Assembly: GCA_963736115.1 (NCBI GenBank)
Contig: CAVTNR010000014.1
Location: 64,001 to 128,000 of the forward strand
From: an uncultured bacterium
Lineage (GTDB): Bacteria; Zhuqueibacterota; QNDG01; DTFT01
Direction of reading: 5' to 3'
Length of the DNA stretch: 64,000 nt
Part shown: piece after piece, positions 1 to 26,764 of the stretch
How the letters are laid out: the number at the start of each line of letters is the position of its first letter
How positions within the stretch are numbered: position 1 is the first letter of the stretch
Notes under the pieces: model-generated
Told to the model about the DNA's origin: nothing
Database searches by the model: none
The model's input: the letters and a program-made list of their open reading frames with translations, nothing else
Position numbers and translations under genes: made by a program

Positions 1-70
1 CAATTTCAAGGAGAAGGCGCAGTTCGCGGCCGAGGAATCGGCCCAGACCGCGCCGAAAGTCCAGTTCTGA
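1..70 (+). CDS. 3' end of a CDS entering the window (…NFKEKAQFAAEESAQTAPKVQF*)
   Basis: Open frame from position 2 to TGA 68-70, followed by a terminator; product not identifiable. Confidence 0.5.
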   Translation, partial: NFKEKAQFAAEESAQTAPKVQF

Positions 71-100
71 CCGTTTCCCGATTTTTCAAAACGGATTTTC

Positions 101-142
101 CCATCCCGCCTTCCTTACAAGGGAAGGCGGGATGGCCTTTTT
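101..142 (+). terminator. Intrinsic terminator
   Basis: CCATCCCGCCTTCC / GGAAGGCGGGATGG stem followed by CCTTTTT. Confidence 0.8.
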
Positions 143-218
143 CGGAACGGAGTCAGCCGGCCGCCCGGCAGGCGCTCTGATCGCCATAGGGTTCCACCCC
201 GCGATCCGGGGCCAAGTC

Positions 219-245
219 GTAGGGTGGGCCTTCGGCCCACCCTAC
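219..245. repeat. GTAG-type REP-like palindrome
   Basis: GTAGGGTGGGCC-TTC-GGCCCACCCTAC; related copies at 21448-21515. Confidence 0.6.
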
Positions 246-263
246 AACTGAGGAAATGAAACA

Positions 264-3239
264 ATGACCGAACCTGAAGAAAATAGCCGATCCGCAACTC
301 CGGAAGATGGGGGCGTCGACCTGACCCCGAGCCAGCGCCAGGCCGTCGAGCACGGAAACGGTCCCCTGCTGATCGTGGCGGGCGCGGGCACGGGGAAAAC
401 ACTCGTTCTCACTCGGCGCATCGCGCACCTGATCCGGTCCAAACGCTTCAGGCCGGAGGAGATTCTGGCCCTCACGTTCACGGAAAAAGCCGCGGCCGAG
501 ATGGCTGAACGCGTGGATGTGCTTCTGCCCTACGGTTTCGCGGCAGTGAATGTGTCCACCTTCCATGCCTTCGGGGACCGGATTCTCCGGGAGTATGCGA
601 TCGAGCTCGGGCTGAATCCCGATTTTCAGGTGCTCTCCGAGGCCGAGCAGGTCATCCTGTTCCGGGAGCACCTTTTTGATTTTCCTCTGAAACATTACCG
701 GCCTCTCTCTGATCCCACCAAGTTCATTCAGGCCATGTTGAAAGTCATTTCCCGGGCGAAGGACGAGGACGTGTCCCCTGAGGACTATGCGGCTTACGTG
801 GCCGCCCTGCGGAAGGATCCGAAATCGGACCCGGAGGAAACCGGACGGCAGGCCGAAATCGCCGGAACCTACGCGGCTTACCAGCGCCTGCTGGCTGAGA
901 AGGGGAAGGCCGATTTCGGCGACCAGGTCACGCTGACTCTCCGGCTGTTCCGCGAACGGCCGCATGTGCTCAGCGAGGTCCATAAGCGGTACCGGGCCAT
1001 TCTGGTGGACGAGTTTCAGGACACGAACTACGCGCAGTTCCAGATGGTCCAAATGCTGGGCGGCCCTGAGGCCAATGTCACCGTGGTCGGCGACGACGAC
1101 CAGTCGATCTACAAGTTCAGGGGCGCCGCGATTTCCAACATCCTGGGCTTCAGAAAGACGTATCCACAGGCCCGGCTGGTCGTGCTCACCGGGAATTTCC
1201 GCTCCAGTCAGGAGATTCTTGACACGGCCTACCGGCTCATCCAGCACAACAATCCCGACCGGCTCGAGGTGCAGGAGCAGTTCGACAAGCGGCTGGTCTC
1301 GAACCGTGCCGAAGGCTCTCCGGTCGAACATATCCATGCGGATTCCCTGACTTCCGAGTCGGACCGGGTGGCGGCCCTGATTCAGGAAATGCTCGAGTCC
1401 GGGAAGGCCGTTCCGAACGACATTGCCATACTGGTACGGTCCAACTCGGACGCGGACCCTTTTCTGCGGGCGTTGAATCTCAAGAATATCCCGTGGCGTT
1501 TTTCAGGAAACCGGGGTCTGTACGGCAGGAGCGAGGTCCGCCTGCTGATTTCCTTTCTCCGTACGATTTCCGATTCCGGGGATTCGCTGAACCTTTTCGC
1601 TTTCGCGTCCTCTCCTGTGTACCAGATGCCGATGGAGGATCTTCTGCTGTGCGCGAACGCGGCCCGGCGTTCAAACCGGCCGCTGATGGACGTATTCCGG
1701 ACCGCGGCAACCGAAGATCCGGCGAAGAGCGGACGGCCCGAAACGGATTCTTCGAAGAATCGGGATCCGCTCGCCGGTCTGACGGACGAGGGCCGCATCA
1801 CGGTCCGGAAGCTCACGGCGGATATCCGCGCGTACGCCGAACTGTCGCGTGACCACGCGACGGGCGTCGTCCTGTATCAGTTCCTGATGCAGTCCGGTTT
1901 TCTGAAGCGTCTGTCCCAGAGCGCGGACCCGGAGGACGGCGTCCGCATTCAGAACATCGCCCGGTTCTTCGACGTGGTCGGATCCTTCGGCCGGATGGCC
2001 GAGGAGGATCGTGTGTTTCAGTTCGTCCGGCACCTCGAAATGCTCATGGAGGCGGGCGACGATCCCGGCACCGCGGAGACGGATCCGGACCTGGAGGCGG
2101 TCAGCGTGCTCACCGTGCACCGGGCCAAGGGGCTTGAGTGGCCGGTGGTGTTCATGGTCAGCCTGGTCCATCAGAAATTCCCCCACACCCGGCGGTCCGA
2201 CGCGCTTGATTTGCCAGAAGCACTGGTCCGGGATGAGCCCCCGAAAGGCGATTTTCACATGCAGGAGGAGCGGCGGTTGTTCTATGTGGCCATGACGCGG
2301 GCCCGGGACCGGCTGTTTTTCACGGGTGGAGCGGATTACGGGGGCGCCCGGATCCGGAAAGTCAGCCCCTTCGTGCTCGAGGCCCTGGACCGGCCGCATG
2401 TGGACCAGGTGAACTTCCGGTCCGGCGCGGAGGAACGGATCCGGCGTTTCGCGCCGATCGAGACCTCCTTCACGGAGCTGTCCGCGCCTCTTCCGGACGA
2501 CCGTGTGCTGCAGCTCTCGCACTTTCAGGTGGACGATTACCTCACCTGCCCCCTTAAATACAAGTATGTCCACATCCTGCGCGTACCCATACTCGAGCAC
2601 CACACCGTGGTGTACGGGAAATCCCTGCACAAGGCAGTCGAACTGTACCACGAACGAAAAACGAGCAGGGTCCCGGTCGCGCTGGAGGACCTTTTGGCCG
2701 CCTTCGAATCCGAATGGAAGAGCACGGGATTCCTGTCGGCCGCTCACGAGGAACAGCGCTTCGAGGCCGGGCGGAACGCGCTTCGGCGTTTCTTCGAGAC
2801 CGAGGAGACATCGGGCGCTGTGCCGATCCTGGTGGAGGAAAAATTCAGTTTCCTCATCGGGTACAACCGGATGGAGGGGCGCTGGGACCGGGTCGACGAA
2901 AGGGACGGCCGTATCGTGATCGTCGATTTTAAGTCCTCCGAAGTGTACCAGCAGGAGGCCGCGGACAAGCGGGCCGCTGAAAGCCTCCAGCTGGCCATAT
3001 ACGCCATGGCCTTTCAGAGGGCCTTCGATCGGCCCGTGGAATCCACGGAGCTCCGGTTCCTGGAATCGGGCCTGGTCGGTCGGGCGCCGGTCACGCCGAA
3101 GCGGCTGGAAAAGACGGAAACGGCCGTGCTTGAGGCCGCAGCCGGGATTCGCGGCCGGGACTACACAGCCAAACCTTCCTACCAGAGCTGTCGGTTCTGC
3201 GCCTATTCCGAGGTATGCCCCAGCGCGGCCGGGAGATGA
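264..3239 (+). CDS. UvrD/PcrA-family SF1 helicase fused to C-terminal PD-(D/E)XK nuclease with Fe-S cysteines (AddA/AdnB-like)
   Basis: AGAGTGKT, LVDEFQD, VGDDDQSIY, TVHRAKGLEW, EERRLFYVAMTRA; nuclease GRWDRVD…IVDFKS, QLAIYA; Cys in YLTCPLKY and CRFCAYSEVC. Confidence 0.93.
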   Translation: MTEPEENSRSATPEDGGVDLTPSQRQAVEHGNGPLLIVAGAGTGKTLVLTRRIAHLIRSKRFRPEEILALTFTEKAAAEMAERVDVLLPYGFAAVNVSTFHAFGDRILREYAIELGLNPDFQVLSEAEQVILFREHLFDFPLKHYRPLSDPTKFIQAMLKVISRAKDEDVSPEDYAAYVAALRKDPKSDPEETGRQAEIAGTYAAYQRLLAEKGKADFGDQVTLTLRLFRERPHVLSEVHKRYRAILVDEFQDTNYAQFQMVQMLGGPEANVTVVGDDDQSIYKFRGAAISNILGFRKTYPQARLVVLTGNFRSSQEILDTAYRLIQHNNPDRLEVQEQFDKRLVSNRAEGSPVEHIHADSLTSESDRVAALIQEMLESGKAVPNDIAILVRSNSDADPFLRALNLKNIPWRFSGNRGLYGRSEVRLLISFLRTISDSGDSLNLFAFASSPVYQMPMEDLLLCANAARRSNRPLMDVFRTAATEDPAKSGRPETDSSKNRDPLAGLTDEGRITVRKLTADIRAYAELSRDHATGVVLYQFLMQSGFLKRLSQSADPEDGVRIQNIARFFDVVGSFGRMAEEDRVFQFVRHLEMLMEAGDDPGTAETDPDLEAVSVLTVHRAKGLEWPVVFMVSLVHQKFPHTRRSDALDLPEALVRDEPPKGDFHMQEERRLFYVAMTRARDRLFFTGGADYGGARIRKVSPFVLEALDRPHVDQVNFRSGAEERIRRFAPIETSFTELSAPLPDDRVLQLSHFQVDDYLTCPLKYKYVHILRVPILEHHTVVYGKSLHKAVELYHERKTSRVPVALEDLLAAFESEWKSTGFLSAAHEEQRFEAGRNALRRFFETEETSGAVPILVEEKFSFLIGYNRMEGRWDRVDERDGRIVIVDFKSSEVYQQEAADKRAAESLQLAIYAMAFQRAFDRPVESTELRFLESGLVGRAPVTPKRLEKTETAVLEAAAGIRGRDYTAKPSYQSCRFCAYSEVCPSAAGR

Positions 3240-3357
3240 GGCCCGGAACCGGGAACCGGAAGGGGGGAGTCGGGGTTCACTTATATCCGGCATTCTTCAG
3301 CGTACCGCCGGCCGGATCAGCCGGAAATGATTGATTAACATAGAACGGAGATCGTGC

Positions 3358-3873
3358 ATGGATTTCTTTGAAACGGTTCAGGCCAGGCGTTCGGTGCGCT
3401 CATTCAAACCGGATCCCGTGGACGCTGAGGCGCTCAGCGGTATTCTGGAGGCGGCCCGTCTGGCGCCATCCGCGAACAACAGGCAGGAATGGCGATTTGT
3501 CGTCGTGCGGGATCCGTTGACGCGTCAGATGCTTTCAATTGCCGCGGAGGGACAGGCCTTCGTGGCTGAGGCGCCCGTGGTCATCGCGGCTTGCGCCTCG
3601 GAATCGGATCATATCATGCACTGCGGCCATCCGGCCTATGCCGTTGACCTGGCCATCGCCATCGAGCACATGGTTCTGGCCGCGGCCAGCCTCGGGTTGG
3701 GAACTTGCTGGATCGGCGCGTTCAATCAGGCGAGGGTACGGGAAATCCTCGGTATTCCCGATTCCGTGGCGGTCGTGGAACTCCTGGCCCTGGGCCATCC
3801 GGCGGCCGTTCCCGGCCCCAGGCCGCGCAAATCCATGAATGAGATTGTGGCGTACGAGAAGTGGACGTTTTGA
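3358..3873 (+). CDS. Nitroreductase family protein
   Basis: RRSVRSF, APSANNRQEWRFVVV, LGLGTCWIGAF; ATG 3358 after GGAG. Confidence 0.93.
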   Translation: MDFFETVQARRSVRSFKPDPVDAEALSGILEAARLAPSANNRQEWRFVVVRDPLTRQMLSIAAEGQAFVAEAPVVIAACASESDHIMHCGHPAYAVDLAIAIEHMVLAAASLGLGTCWIGAFNQARVREILGIPDSVAVVELLALGHPAAVPGPRPRKSMNEIVAYEKWTF

Positions 3874-3910
3874 TCAGATCTCGGATTTCCGAATACGGAA
3901 TTGAAGCGGC

Positions 3911-4164
3911 CGGTAGCCGCGGGCTTCAGCCCGCGTTTGAAAAAGAATCGCCAGACCATAAGTGACCGGTAGCCGCGGGCTTTAACCCGCGTTTGAAAGA
4001 GAATCGCCAGACCATAAGTGACCGGTAGCCGCGGGCTTTAACCCGCGTTTGAAAGAGAATCGCCAGACCAAAAGCGATCGGTAGCCGCGGGCTTCAGCCC
4101 GCGTTTGAAAGAGAATCGCCAGACCATAAGTGATCGGTAGCCGCGGGCTTCAGCCCGCGTTTGA
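3911..4164. repeat. Tandem array of 4.5 x 56-bp units, each carrying a GTAG-type REP hairpin
   Basis: Units start at 3911, 3967, 4023, 4079 and 4135; GTAGCCGCGGGCTT(C/T)A(G/A)CCCGCG plus a nearly invariant linker. Confidence 0.9.
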
Positions 4165-22063: not shown

Positions 22064-22354
22064 GTGAAAACAATTTTAATAAATTTACTAGGAATAATTA
22101 TATATAGTGGTCCCGTAATTTTCTATTTAATAACCAGATTCATAGGGTCCATTAAAAATGATAGATTGACCAATAGATTGTTTGTAGGTCAAATATTATT
22201 TCAAGCGATAGTAGGCATAATATTAATATATAGATATTTTCAAAATAAGTTTATTATTGAAGATTTAATAGTATTGTTTATTTGTGGAGCAATCACAATA
22301 ATTATCGATATAATATATATTCCTATTAGATTAATTGAGTTAAACGGGAAGTAA
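22064..22354 (+). CDS. Gene-cassette 1 ORF: small AT-rich membrane protein
   Basis: Three hydrophobic segments; lies between core site 21993 and attC1. Confidence 0.65.
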   Translation: MKTILINLLGIIIYSGPVIFYLITRFIGSIKNDRLTNRLFVGQILFQAIVGIILIYRYFQNKFIIEDLIVLFICGAITIIIDIIYIPIRLIELNGK

Positions 22355-22406
22355 AATATACCAATTACAGATTTATAAATATTGATTAAACAGATAACTG
22401 ATTTTC

Positions 22407-22513
22407 GCATAACCCGTTAATCGTGCGGACGGTGCCCTAATCGGTCTTGACTTCCTGGAGGGGCGTGCAATGCGAAATATCCCATTGCCGCCCGCACATC
22501 AACCATGTTATGC
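22407..22513 (+). mobile_element. attC site 1 (intact)
   Basis: GCATAAC…GTTATGC; arms GTTAATCGTGCGG / CCGCACATCAAC pair with an extrahelical base. Confidence 0.85.
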
Positions 22514-23167
22514 GGATATATGAGGTATTCAAATATGATCATACGAATATTCCCGTCAGCTGTGATAAGGTACCCAGCGATAGTTCATCAGATAAAAATA
22601 AAGCTGACTATTTCCCTGTTGAATTGAACACTAAATGGACATATCAGTATTCATCATATTTTATTTCGAGTGGTTTTGATGGCGATTTCGTAGAAGCAAC
22701 AGATGAATGGGAAATTATAAATAAAACAATAAATGATACGGTTATAATTTATACAGTAAATAGAAATTCAAAGGAAGAATTTGAAAAGAAATATCAATTG
22801 AAGAATTGGTTAAAATACGATACAACCATAATAAATAATGAGATGAGCGTGTTCAATATTTATGAAAATATTCATTTAAATGTAATATCGATTGACTTAA
22901 AAGAAAGCGATAGTATGAATTACCTAAAAATGGAAATTATCATCTTGAACATTAAACGGAGTAGGATCAATACCACCTGGAAGTATGGTTATGTTTCGAT
23001 TTGGTGATTATATCGTTGGCCATGGTCTAGTCAGGGAAGATATCAAACCTATAAATATAAAAATAGAAGGTGTGACGTATCATGGTCTTATTAAATTTGA
23101 TAAACAATCTATAAAAATTTATCCAATAATCATTACCCATAAAGTTATTAGAAAAATATCTTACTAG
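22510..23167 (+). pseudogene. Degenerate cassette-2 gene (lipoprotein-like, DYFP…WTY motif)
   Basis: SCDK…DYFPVELNTKWTY without an intact signal peptide; split into ORFs ending at 23007 and 23167. Confidence 0.5.
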
Positions 23168-23249
23168 AAATCTGTCGGTTGCTCAACCATATTATAAACT
23201 TGATGCATACAAATTATTAGATACATTATTGATTAAAATACTAAAATTG

Positions 23250-23280
23250 GCATAACACGATCATTCTCGGGACGGTGCCC
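23250..23280 (+). mobile_element. attC site 2, left arm (interrupted by IS)
   Basis: GCATAACACGATCATTCTCGGGACGGTGCCC; homologous to the attC1 left arm and pairs with 24728-24753. Confidence 0.85.
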
Positions 23281-23399
23281 CTTTAAAAAGGACAAAGTCA
23301 AGTATAAAATATCCTCTCGGGCGAAAACAATATGTTTTCGCCTAATGTAAAGATGGTTTGGATTGACGTAACAGCGTTCGTTCTTTGAAAAACTCTGTC

Positions 23400-23590
23400 T
23401 CTGTGCCGATTCAATATCGTTGAACGTCAATGGCGTCCATACCCCTTTCCGGGCTTGACTCTCTCAGATCGAGAGCGTTCCGAAATCGTCTCAGAACTAT
23501 CCCAGATATCTTATCGGCACTGCGAGCCTGACTTCCCAATCCCTACTGCGGATCTCTAGGATCCAGCACCGTCCCCGGGCTTGTCGGGCT
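23400..23590 (-). ncRNA. Bridge RNA / seekRNA of the IS1111-group element
   Basis: Minus-strand guides GGACGGTGC and AGTAGGG match target GACGGTG-CCC-TACT; AAGATATC and AAAGGGG match donor AAAATAT-CCC-CTTT; RNA ends are approximate. Confidence 0.8.
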
Positions 23591-24589
23591 CGGCCAGTGA
23601 CGCACTTTTACTCGTGTTAGTTTTTTCCCTTTAAAGGTAAAATCATAATCAGATTTCTTGGTGATGACGTGATACACGATACGGGCCAGTTCTTTGGCAA
23701 CCAGGTTCCGTGCAAGGTGTTTGTTTTTTTTACGGCATTTTCTTTGATAGAAGTCCCGGATTTCAGGGTAATTCGTGTAGGCGCTAACAGCCGCATCGTT
23801 GAAAACAATTTTTAGATAGTTATTGCCGGCTTTTGATTCTTTTTTGCCGTGCTTGCATTTTCCGCCCGAATTGGAAGCCGCAGGCACGACTCTCGAATAG
23901 GAGAAAAACTTTTTTTCCGTTGGGAATCTTGAAAAATCCCCAACTTCGAGAAAAATGGTGAATGCACTGATTTTACCGATACCTGGAATCCAGAGAATTC
24001 TCTGAACATCCTCATTGAGGACGACTTGAGGATAAATCGTTTTTTCCAGTTCTTTGACTTGTTCGTTTAGGAAATTGACATGCTCATCAAGCTGCTTGTA
24101 CTGAAATTGAAAAAGACCGGGTAGATCATCAGGATCGGTTACGTTGAATTTCTCAGTCAATCGGCAGATACTGTTTACGACACACGTTTTTCTTTGAATC
24201 AGGCGAAGTCTGGCTCTCATGAGATCGCGTTTATCCCTGAGAACGGGATCGATTTGATGGGCTTCAGGTATATAATCGATTCTAAGTAATTGTGCCATGG
24301 TTGTGGAATCGATTTGGTCTGTTTTGATTTTAGCAGTGGATATGGCTTTGAGTTTGTTGGTATTGGCCAGGATCATCTCGATGCCGTTCCCGTGAAGCAG
24401 GTCGGCGATCCAATACCATCCATTTGTGGATTCGACGACAACTTTGTGTGTGTTGCCAAGTTGTTGAAAATAATTGAGTATTTTATCGGGATGATTGTAT
24501 ATTTTCTGTTGCTCGATGACAACGCCTTTCTCATCGACGGTTGTCAGGTGAGAGAAGCTTTTATGAAGATCGATGCCGGTGTAATACAT
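23543..24589 (-). CDS. IS110-family DEDD recombinase/transposase
   Basis: GIDLHK, VVVEST, KTDQIDS, IPGIG, SNSGG (catalytic Ser), GNNYLK; GGGAGG RBS before ATG 24589. Confidence 0.96.
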   Translation of the reverse strand: MYYTGIDLHKSFSHLTTVDEKGVVIEQQKIYNHPDKILNYFQQLGNTHKVVVESTNGWYWIADLLHGNGIEMILANTNKLKAISTAKIKTDQIDSTTMAQLLRIDYIPEAHQIDPVLRDKRDLMRARLRLIQRKTCVVNSICRLTEKFNVTDPDDLPGLFQFQYKQLDEHVNFLNEQVKELEKTIYPQVVLNEDVQRILWIPGIGKISAFTIFLEVGDFSRFPTEKKFFSYSRVVPAASNSGGKCKHGKKESKAGNNYLKIVFNDAAVSAYTNYPEIRDFYQRKCRKKNKHLARNLVAKELARIVYHVITKKSDYDFTFKGKKLTRVKVRHWPSPTSPGTVLDPRDPQ

Positions 24590-24678
24590 GACGGGCCTCC
24601 CTGCTGACATTGGTGATTTTATGCTAATTTAATCACCTTGAATGAAAAGGGAAAGGACGTCCTTTTTGAAAATATCCC

Positions 24679-24753
24679 TACTCAGTTGTGGCTTTTTGAA
24701 AGCTGTGCAATCCGTAACCGATCATGTCCGCCCCGAGATGATCACCGTTACCA
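24679..24753 (+). mobile_element. attC site 2, right arm
   Basis: TACTCAGTTGTGGC…GTGCAATCCG…CCGCCCCGAGATGATCACC-GTT; homologous to attC1 and attC4. Confidence 0.85.
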
Positions 24754-24899
24754 TCTGGTTAGATGAGATTACTATAAACTATTTTAAAAAGTTAGCTGAT
24801 GAAATTGATGTGCCCTATCAGACATTAATCAATCTTTATCTAAGAGATTGTGCTGCTACTAATCGAAAACTATCTTTAAAATGTCGACCGGCCGGTTAA
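24747..24899 (+). pseudogene. 5'-truncated BrnA/CopG-like antitoxin remnant
   Basis: VTIWLDEITINYFKKLADEIDVPYQTLINLYLRDCA begins exactly at the attC2 GTT; no N-terminus or toxin gene. Confidence 0.7.
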
Positions 24900-24961
24900 T
24901 TTTCTCGGCCAACCCCAGATCCAATTGTGTCATTCGTTGAACCATACTGTGGAGCGAATCA

Positions 24962-26764
24962 ATGCTAAAAGAACATCCAAGAGGGTTACTTGTCGCATTC
25001 ATCGCCAACATGGGCGAACGCTTTGGCTTTTACACCATGATGGCCATTCTGGTGCTGTTCCTGCAGGCCAAATATGGTCTCAGCGAAAGAGAAGCAGGAA
25101 GTTACTACAGCTGGTTCTATTTCGGTATTTACGCGCTGGCGCTGTTTGGCGGCACGATAGCGGATTGGAGCAAAAAGTACAAGCTGGTCATTCTGGTTGG
25201 TCTGCTCGTCATGTTCTCCGGTTACATTATTATGAGTCTGCCGGGCAACACCCTTGCCATGACGCTGATCGGTCTTTTTATCATTGCCTTTGGCAATGGT
25301 TTATTTAAAGGCAACCTGCAGGCGGTGGTCGGTCAGATGTACGACAATCCGCAGTACTCCAAAGTCCGCGACTCCGCATACATGATTTTCTACATGGGCA
25401 TAAACGTCGGCGCTTTTTTCGCGCCATTTGCCGCCACAGCGGCCCGCAACTGGTTTTTAAAGACACAAGGGCTGCTCCACGACGGCAGTATGCCTGCCAT
25501 GTGTCATGCCTTCATGCGCGGAGAAATGAACGATATCGGAAAATTTCAGGCGCTCGCCGACAAAGTCTCCGGGCAAACGGTCACAAATCCGGGCGTATTT
25601 GCACAGCATTATATCGATGTTTTCTCCAGGGGTTACAATTATGCCTTTGCGCTCGCGGCAGGGGCGATGATTCTTTCCACCCTGGTTTTCGTCATTTTCA
25701 ATAAACATTTGCCGAACAAAGAAAATTCGGCCGTCAAGGAGAAAGTTGGTAAGGGATCACTGTCTTTTGTCTTGGCGCTGATCGCCGCCGCGGCATCAGC
25801 CGGTTTGGCATACCTCGCCTCCGGCAATGTGGACATATCGTTCGCTATCGGTCTTTTCATCGGGTTTGTAACATGGATCGTGCAGATTTCCACCAAAGAA
25901 GAACGGCCGCGCATCGTCGCCCTGCTACTGGTATTCCTAGTGGTCATCTTCTTCTGGATGTCATTCCACCAGAATGGGCTCACGCTCACCTTCTTCGCCC
26001 GCGATTATACGGTCAAGGAAGTCGGTCCTTTCACCAACATATTCTTCGATCTCACATCCATGCTGGTATTTATCGGAGCGGTGGCCGGATTTTTCCTGCT
26101 CCTGCTGAACAAGAAATCGTTGGGCAAATTGATCGGCGGAGTCATGTTGGCTGGTTTAGGCTATTTAACCTATTACTTTGTCTCGCGAAATCAGACTTTA
26201 AATCCCATCGCCCCCGAAGTATTTCAGTCATTCAATCCGCTCTTCATTGTTGCGCTAACTTTTCCGGTGATGGCCATTTTCGCCTGGTTGAATCGAAAAA
26301 ATATTGAGCCTTCAACGCCGAAAAAGATCGGCATCGGCATGATCATCGCATCCATCGGCTTTCTCATCGTGCTGGTCGCCTCCCTCAAGCTGGTGTCGCC
26401 GCACATGCTGCAATACGTCGACGGGTTCGGCAAGCAGGCGTACAATCCGGTGCCGGATACATCGCGGGTCTCGCCCTACTGGCTGATCCACAGTTACCTC
26501 ATCCTCACCATTGCAGAACTATTCCTCAGTCCGATGGGATTGTCTTTTGTGTCGAAAGTTGCGCCAGTGCGTTTCCAGGGCGTGATGCAGGGTGGCTGGC
26601 TGCTGGCTACGGCCGTTGGTAACAAGCTCCTGGTCGTCGGCAGTTACTTCTGGGGCAAACTGGATCTGTGGCAGCTTTGGGGTATTTTTATCATCTGCTG
26701 TTTGTTATCGGCTGGATTTATTTTTTCAATCATGAAAAGGCTAGAGCAATCCACCAAAAGCTGA
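24962..26764 (+). CDS. POT/PTR-family proton-dependent oligopeptide MFS transporter
   Basis: MGERFGFY, GNGLFKGN, FYMGINVGA, FQSFNPLFI, AELFLSPMGLS. Confidence 0.93.
   Translation: MLKEHPRGLLVAFIANMGERFGFYTMMAILVLFLQAKYGLSEREAGSYYSWFYFGIYALALFGGTIADWSKKYKLVILVGLLVMFSGYIIMSLPGNTLAMTLIGLFIIAFGNGLFKGNLQAVVGQMYDNPQYSKVRDSAYMIFYMGINVGAFFAPFAATAARNWFLKTQGLLHDGSMPAMCHAFMRGEMNDIGKFQALADKVSGQTVTNPGVFAQHYIDVFSRGYNYAFALAAGAMILSTLVFVIFNKHLPNKENSAVKEKVGKGSLSFVLALIAAAASAGLAYLASGNVDISFAIGLFIGFVTWIVQISTKEERPRIVALLLVFLVVIFFWMSFHQNGLTLTFFARDYTVKEVGPFTNIFFDLTSMLVFIGAVAGFFLLLLNKKSLGKLIGGVMLAGLGYLTYYFVSRNQTLNPIAPEVFQSFNPLFIVALTFPVMAIFAWLNRKNIEPSTPKKIGIGMIIASIGFLIVLVASLKLVSPHMLQYVDGFGKQAYNPVPDTSRVSPYWLIHSYLILTIAELFLSPMGLSFVSKVAPVRFQGVMQGGWLLATAVGNKLLVVGSYFWGKLDLWQLWGIFIICCLLSAGFIFSIMKRLEQSTKS

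Follow-up and report, generated by a model that had tools for sequence, protein, structure and literature searches.

Can the guides of an RNA-guided transposase be written in the last codons of the transposase gene itself, stop codon included, and does the choice of target then decide how long the protein is? The question is raised by a minus-strand insertion sequence, at about 24677-23278 of the window (by which we mean the whole 64,000-nt stretch of DNA analyzed here), that sits in an integron attC site. An earlier note on this DNA had proposed that a target-binding loop is overprinted on the C-terminus of the transposase, a claim that is borne out by the matches between guides and flanks and by the covariation of a stem. 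The region in question is very probably the target-binding loop of an IS1111-type seekRNA/bridge RNA, and it overlaps the last 15 codons of tnp on the same strand.

The element and its attC site

The element, its gene and the sites that it touches are the following:

23278-24677 (-): insertion sequence of the IS1111 group, with the GG core included at either end (24677-24676 and 23279-23278); ends read from the sequence
23543-24589 (-): tnp, a 348-aa IS110-family DEDD transposase; likely start MYYTGID at 24589 (the start in the ORF list is 24610)
24659-24670 (-): left subterminal inverted repeat TTCAAAAAGGAC, from sequence reading and a motif-anchored search
23282-23293 (-): right subterminal inverted repeat GTCCTTTTTAAA, from sequence reading and a motif-anchored search
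24676-24682 (-): left half of the attC target, AGTAGGG
23269-23278 (-): right half of the attC target, GCACCGTCCC, which is the L' arm
22427-22439 (-): unoccupied attC copy with TAGGGCACCGTCC

Judged by its sequence features, the element is a member of the IS1111 group of the IS110 family. The transposase matches the Pfam domains DEDD_Tnp_IS110 (PF01548, 2.3e-14) and Transposase_20 (PF02371, 7.5e-18) in the domain order of IS110, with the DEDD (RuvC-like) domain N-terminal and Transposase_20 C-terminal. It scores 174.8 bits with NCBIfam NF033542 ('IS110 family RNA-guided transposase', cut-off 140), in a match that covers residues 4-312 only, and its homologues start with MxYTGID. The two subterminal repeats are identical at 11 of 12 positions and are extended by GGATATT (7 bp) ahead of the left repeat and by GGG (3 bp) behind the right one. 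The left end of the element reads ATATTTTCAAAAAGGAC and its right end GTCCTTTTTAAA GG. The non-coding ends, about 88 nt upstream of tnp and about 263 nt downstream, have the layout of the IS1111 group as described by Siddiquee et al. 2024 (PMC11187229). The 3.3-Mb draft genome holds one full copy of the element; a search for further copies across this genome found none, and the part that recurs is the attC portion of the flank only. A small ORF with a CopG/BrnA-like look (...YQTLINLYLRDCA...) adjoins the left end at 24642-24899 (+), and its upstream region is the attC half interrupted by the element. This ORF has no match in NCBIfam.

The target itself is, on the layout of the flanks and of their copies, an integron attC site. 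The insertion has one orientation and a fixed position within attC, and its flanks rebuild a site of attC layout. The 13-mer TAGGGCACCGTCC occurs in 6 exact copies in the genome, where about 0.1 are expected by our own arithmetic: four on one contig, 0.6-1.0 kb apart, one in the window, and one on a third contig. Each copy lies in a site of about 125 nt, made of ..TAAC, GTGCGGACGG, a spacer, CACCGTCCGCAC and GTTAGC or GTTATG. This order matches the R''-L''...L'-R' layout of integron attC, and the last part is GTTRRRY-like. We gave weight to exact and one-mismatch copies only; with up to two mismatches the 13-mer is not enriched, either in the window (2 against 1.5 expected) or in the genome (68 against 158 for the reversed control).

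Arrays of attC-like sites are seen in the window, on contig 16 at 64-3991 (L167), and on contig 12 at 109535-112180 (L168), with a spacing of 0.6-1.5 kb and AT-rich small ORFs in between. Contig 12 also has a match to an integron integrase (345 bits, above the cut-off, with one internal TGA), about 213 kb away. In most relatives of the element (among L007-L165), the insertion point is precisely (T/G)G|TTA within a GTTRRRY-like core, and G|TT of the attC core is the crossover point of integron integrases.

The loop and the 3' end of tnp

By analogy with ISEc11, ISKpn4 and IS621, an RNA of the element would pair with both attC strands around the GG core and direct insertion there. As in characterized relatives, it would be cotranscribed with tnp, the transposase would bind it, and the joined ends of the element would be read by a second part of it, which is branched (23520-23403). 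The parts of this putative RNA are, in 5' to 3' order:

23583-23591 (-): 5' strand of the P1 stem, GAGCCCGAC, from the third base of the P333 codon to the second base of the T336 codon
23577-23582 (-): loop motif A-AGCCC, the last base of the T336 codon and codons S337-P338
23566-23575 (-): right-target guide GGGACGGTGC, codons G339, T340 and V341 and the first base of L342
23550-23564 (-): P3 hairpin GGATC-CTAGA-GATCC within the loop, codons L342-P347, from folding
23539-23547 (-): left-target guide AGTAGGG, including the GG core, then AU, in the sense of the left flank; it holds the TAG at 23545-23543
23524-23532 (-): 3' strand of the P1 stem, GTCAGGCTC, with one C-A mismatch at 23529
23403-23520 (-): predicted donor-binding part, with closing stem GTGCCGAT/ATCGGCAC

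On the minus strand, tnp ends in ...CCG GGG ACG GTG CTG GAT CCT AGA GAT CCG CAG TAG. The earlier note had placed one guide in the codons for P-G-T-V-L and the stop within the second guide. Both placements are correct: GGACGGTGC lies at 23574-23566 within these codons, and the TAG (23545-23543) lies inside AGTAGGG (23547-23541). About 49 nt of the loop are inside the coding sequence, among them the complete right-target guide and some of the left-target one. The left guide is followed by AUUGGGAAG and then by the 3' strand of the stem. The same nucleotides serve as guide and as codons, so that the target dictates both residues 339-342 and the place where the frame stops. If the TAG of the window were removed, the frame would continue for 43 codons to a TGA.

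The CCC of the A-AGCCC motif may pair with GGG at 23537-23535, as the two are paired in the minimum-free-energy fold and their columns are invariant. At the C-A mismatch of the stem, the 97% identical relative L086 has a G that restores a G-C pair. Given this mismatch and the single copy in the genome, the copy in the window may be impaired or inactive. Just past the stem, CAGTG at 23522-23518 can pair with CACTG at 23600-23596, in the His-Trp codons of the window, and in most relatives a conserved GCC that follows the stem is a possible partner for the GGC of TGGCC, the columns being invariant. The guide RNA may start even further upstream within the gene.

The relatives that we gathered come from 79 loci in genomes and 80 in metagenomes. 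Over the region of interest they give 104 distinct sequences, 102 of which have a common scaffold at protein identities of 46-97%. The clade is found mostly in Ignavibacteria, Bacteroidota, Gemmatimonadota and their relatives. The scaffold opens with TGGCC and one 9-nt strand of the stem; A-AGCCC, the first guide and C-T-G come next, followed by a variable hairpin, the second guide, (G/T)GATTGGGAAG and, last, the strand that completes the stem. An alignment of homologs had been suggested as a check on the conservation of the RNA scaffold. The window has CAAGCCCGG at 23583-23575, and the AAGCCC part of it, as well as the TTGGG on the 3' side, is invariant or nearly so in the 102 aligned relatives. 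The two exceptions, L114 (a deletion) and L120 (an insertion of about 23 nt), are altered inside the target loop and the tail codons, and are probably decayed elements.

The stem is kept by changes on both sides. In the 102 sequences, 97.9% of the cells of P1 are paired and 8 of the 9 pairs have changed on both sides. Over the structure as a whole, the paired share is 87.0% of the cells, against 68.9% in shuffles and 31-44% with a slid partner; none of 500 shuffles reaches the observed value on four of five measures, and 22 of 500 do so on the fifth. Counted separately over the 46 different stem pairs, 397 of 414 cells are paired, compared with 284.5 +/- 7.2 after shuffling. The inner hairpin varies in length, and its columns pair in 59.5% of the cells of the MAFFT alignment, a low value because this region is poorly aligned.

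Could the overlap be a form of regulation, in which guide and transposase, made from one transcript, exclude each other? Excision of the guide would strip the last codons and the stop from the message, and ribosomes reaching the stop would unfold the loop. The 5' strand of the stem lies 38-48 nt upstream of the stop and the overlap is retained in 102 of the 104 relatives, as this reading would predict, but the overlap could equally be neutral compaction. The classic IS1111 member IS4321, which sits in the Tn21 inverted repeat, also stands against it. IS4321 shares with the element described here a long right end, subterminal repeats that are extended by 7 bp and 3 bp, and the placement of the top-strand match 5' of the bottom-strand match. 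However, in the one plasmid copy that we inspected by eye (L173), the 9-nt match to the right flank, AAAACGGAA, is at 1681-1689, which is 97 nt past the TAA at 1582-1584. With guides some 97 nt and more past the stop, the mechanism works without overlap. The guides of IS4321 being clear of the coding sequence, the overlap is a feature of this clade and not of IS1111 elements generally. A regulatory role is thus possible but doubtful. We propose just as tentatively that the overlap is a built-in switch that sets the ratio of transposase to guide and limits transposition, each retargeting also testing a new tail. If true, a stop that is part of a guide and a new tail with each retargeting would explain the disordered and expendable C-terminus of the clade.

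The preferred reading, a target-binding loop written over the end of the gene, can also be set against one in which the C-terminal WPRxxSP motif and the tail are kept for the protein, for example as an RNA- or DNA-binding tail, the patterns in the nucleotides being by-products. In the relatives, the 5' strand of the stem takes up the third base of a Pro codon, an Arg codon (Ser in the window), the next codon, and the first two bases of the codon that follows, under the protein motif W-P-R-x-x-S-P. Protein constraint does reach at least residue 333: W332 and P333 are almost invariant, the third base of this Pro varies synonymously (CCG 49, CCA 47) while staying paired to the far strand, and K328 uses both AAA and AAG freely. 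From codon 334 on, however, amino acids change while base pairing stays. Residues 335-336 vary, and changes in their codons are matched by changes in the 3' strand of the stem. The Ser codon of the motif is AGC in 91 of the 102 relatives, and the others have AAC (Asn, 9 relatives) or TGC (Cys, 2 relatives), whereas TCN is absent; each change is of one base and alters the amino acid, which is as expected of an RNA motif and not of protein constraint. The residues past P338 have neither sequence nor length in common. The AlphaFold2 model, built from a 48-sequence alignment, has a mean pLDDT of 86.9 and falls below 50 for residues 334-348, so that the tail is predicted to be disordered, and the NCBIfam profile stops at residue 312. 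A tail conserved for the protein is improbable in view of these observations.

Judging from codon use, protein constraint yields to RNA constraint at about codon 333/334. The earlier note had set the limit of conservation at about KKL. Variation is indeed free, but only after S337-P338 and at residues 335-336; nearer to KKL the expectation fails, as K328, W332 and P333 are conserved with synonymous variation. The protein would tolerate the overlap since only a clade-specific tail follows about residue 333; as this tail is predicted to be disordered and varies freely, the coupling is probably of low cost.

Guides and flanks

The right-target guide GGGACGGTGC (23575-23566) is the exact reverse complement of GCACCGTCCC (23278-23269), directly after the right end of the element. 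AGTAGGG is identical to the 7 nt at 24682-24676, directly ahead of the left end, and the whole left-guide segment (23547-23539) is identical to 24682-24674. With the GG core, the rebuilt target reads AGTAG[GG]CACCGTCC, with one guide for each side and both guides extending into the core. The guides match opposite strands across the insertion point, and the top-strand match is the 5' one. The right guide of the window reads the L' arm, and it resembles the L'' arm that pairs with L'. Among the relatives, the right guide with the next C resembles the attC inverse core RYYYAAC, and in this way imitates the pairing partner of the targeted arm.

The position of the right junction was located independently of the guide, by a motif-anchored search, which leaves the comparison in the window with zero search freedom. 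At this position, the right guide of the window matches its flank at 10 of 11 nt (GGACGGTGC against flank GCACCGTCC). The same score is found in L086, whose target is that of the window, in L087 (GGACGCAAC against GTTGCGTCC) and in L047, and 9 of 11 nt match in L089 (GGATGCGGC against GCCGCATCC) and L094 (GATTGGAAC against GTTCCAATC). Over the 46 anchored loci and the 7 variable nt, the mean match of a guide to its own flank is 3.13, compared with 2.18 after permutation (sd 0.15; maximum of 5000 permutations 2.74). The anchors are off by 1-2 nt in L083, L084, L115, L118 and L139, and wrong in L147, and this lowered the scores of own pairs. In the main family, the right match covers little more than GTTA and 2-3 further nt, with an anchored score of 6-7 of 11 at many loci. 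In an unanchored scan over the whole family, the right guides of a locus itself (7.68 of 11) are barely separated from foreign right guides (7.35). Left guides match their own left flanks at 8.73 of 12 nt, against 7.68 of 12 for guides from other loci. The left guide of the window matches over 7 nt exactly, or at 10 of 12 nt counting the following AT, and its TAGGG part is common across the attC family. Read together, these alignments indicate that the guides are real guides and not chance matches.

We considered the AT that follows AGTAGGG as an additional target-specific guide and rejected it, as it is part of the family-wide GATTGGGAAG motif. This AT matches the first bases of the left end of the element itself, which fits a putative handshake-type contact. 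In the predicted donor part, inspection by eye shows that AAGATATC can pair with the left-end sequence GATATTTT if one G-T is allowed, and that AAAGGGG (23448-23442) is identical to the right end and core.

For the predicted donor part, the 204-nt fold gives z = -3.47. The single-sequence fold of the 89-nt loop is unexceptional (z = -1.58; 14 of 200 shuffles as good or better). A search of Rfam over 22300-25000, with E up to 10, returned only SNORD60 at E = 7.6, below its gathering score, which we take as a chance match to a snoRNA. When sequencing runs were searched for the sequence, no run of RNA type listed it, and the shares in the DNA runs were all 0.18 or less. It is highly improbable that the complementarities are due to chance or to a captured piece of attC, with no functional RNA loop overlapping the gene: the likeness of the guide to the attC L'' arm (GTGCGGACGG) could let attC-derived sequence mimic complementarity to L', and neither the fold of the loop alone nor the sequencing runs lend support to an RNA, but guides and flanks co-vary in five distinct pairs at the anchored position, the closing stem covaries in 8 of its 9 pairs, and the scaffold is common to 102 relatives down to 46% and up to 97% protein identity.

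Stop codon, target choice and tail length

The target-binding loop that we favor makes the end of the protein depend on the target, and the relatives give natural variants of this dependence. In 84 of the 102 relatives, the gene ends W-P-R-x-x-S-P-x-x-TAA, the TAA being the third codon of the tail. This TAA, together with the two sense codons ahead of it and the next C, forms RYYTAAC-like strings. GCCTAAC, for example, is what the attC R' core GTTAGGC reads on the opposite strand. Among the anchored loci with the TAA (n = 36), the flank begins with GTTA in 31 and has it shifted by 1-2 nt in 3 more, while GTTA is absent in 8 of the 10 anchored loci that lack the TAA. From this correspondence between TAA and GTTA we conclude that the stop codon of the main family belongs to the right-target guide.

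One relative has TGA at the position of the TAA and 17 have no stop there, mostly with flanks that show a different target. The 17 read on, to stops 4-26 codons later: 10 relatives stop after 4-6 codons, in the loop of the inner hairpin, 6 do so in the left guide or core, and one, L152, ends beyond the loop after 26 codons. Those in the left guide or core are TAG in the window and in L086, TAA in L084, and TGA, from a TG core plus A, in L108, L141 and L149. The frame of L152 crosses the whole target loop into the donor-loop region, and L156 is a second metagenome record of the same insertion. In L108, L141 and L149, an in-frame, constant TGA, made of the TG core and the A of TGATTGGGAAG, acts as the stop. 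Such a TGA may be a fail-safe terminator for retargeted elements.

Retargeted lineages thus lost the TAA and read on, so that in nature the length of the protein is tied to the choice of target. This coupling had been inferred beforehand from the window, and the natural variants, 84 of 102 with the TAA in the guide and 17 that read on for 4-26 codons, substantiate it. That the stop lies within the second guide is true of the window and of L086 but is special to those two: the 87% identical L087 ends at a TGA within the loop of the hairpin, at the place of AGA in the window. Hence, the stop in the left guide would be a recent state of the sub-lineage of the window. The long-tailed form has transposed, as the 97% identical L086 occupies a different attC copy from the window. 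In the history that we propose, the ancestral state of the family would be a TAA stop within a right-target guide that reads the GTTA of the attC R' core; the lineage of the window would have switched its target to the L' arm and, with the TAA gone, come to end 8 codons later.

Much of the mechanism is known from other elements. Siddiquee et al. [quoted passage not shown] According to the text of the same paper, ISEc11, ISKpn4/ISPst6 and ISPa11 have, as here, a DEDD transposase, subterminal repeats, an RNA 3' of tnp, and two matches that overlap at the insertion point (PMC11187229). ISKpn4 and ISPst6 also aim at attC, like the element in the window (PMC11187229). In contrast, the seekRNA of the ISEc11/ISKpn4 type is described there as non-coding (PMC11187229), whereas about 49 nt of the loop in the window are coding sequence. 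The insertion points differ too: that of the window is at the L' boundary and that of the main family at G|TTA of R', and the site of ISKpn4 is another, as given in Table 1 of PMC13604230. Transposases from a plasmid collection have at most 32% identity among the matches listed, which makes the clade distant from plasmid-borne members. Two of these matches were tried as stand-ins for ISEc11/ISKpn4 and rejected, H37 because it is a truncated, unrelated IS110-family gene and H3 because it is an IS110-family gene abutted by ISKpn26.

The bridge RNA of IS621, as described in the text of Durrant et al. 2024 (PMC11208160), also has an internal loop with two guides on opposite strands and a 2-nt core covered by both, and a second loop that reads the element's own ends, as predicted here. 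Unlike in the window, it is encoded at the left end, upstream of the coding sequence, and with the reverse guide order (PMC11208160). The same text places IS1111 bridge RNAs 'within the RE' and states that the flanks used took in 50 bp of the 3' coding sequence (PMC11208160); the models of Durrant et al. may therefore contain this stem, on which their text is silent.

Term searches of the texts of PMC11187229, PMC11208160 and PMC12288879 returned no statement that a guide overlaps the transposase coding sequence or holds its stop, nor did those of PMC13604230, PMC13626964 and 10.64898/2026.10.21.760802, although figures and supplements may differ. The last of these, a 2026 preprint (10.64898/2026.10.21.760802), describes guide RNAs mined from intergenic sequence. 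Our literature searches returned no text reporting a seekRNA or bridge-RNA guide inside a transposase coding sequence. The class of mechanism and the existence of attC-aiming IS1111 elements are therefore already known, and the overlap of guide and coding sequence is new as far as the text found goes. In the omega RNA of IS200/IS605 TnpB, the scaffold overlaps the 3' end of the effector coding sequence and the programmable guide is outside the gene. The coding part of omega RNA is thus scaffold, whereas in the window the programmable guide itself is coding and holds the stop codon.

RNA-guided recombinases of the IS110/IS1111 type are under development as genome-writing tools, and their guides are generally ascribed to the non-coding end. 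Searches limited to intergenic sequence or to the non-coding end would cut RNAs such as this one short, with loss of the 5' strand of the stem and of the first guide. A change of guide made in cis alters the protein and can delete its stop. The earlier note had concluded that the overlap matters for engineering. The coupling does exist, but its practical weight is smaller than this suggests: the tail is predicted to be disordered and looks expendable, natural tails vary, and the RNA, guides included, can be given in trans (PMC11187229).

For the biology of the family, the system illustrates clearly how pairing with a DNA target, here the GTTA of attC, can fix the identity of a stop codon. Its guides mimic the attC arm that is normally paired with the targeted arm, and natural retargeting can be read as a trace left in protein length. 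The overlap hence matters for the annotation of these RNAs and for the co-evolution of guide and gene.
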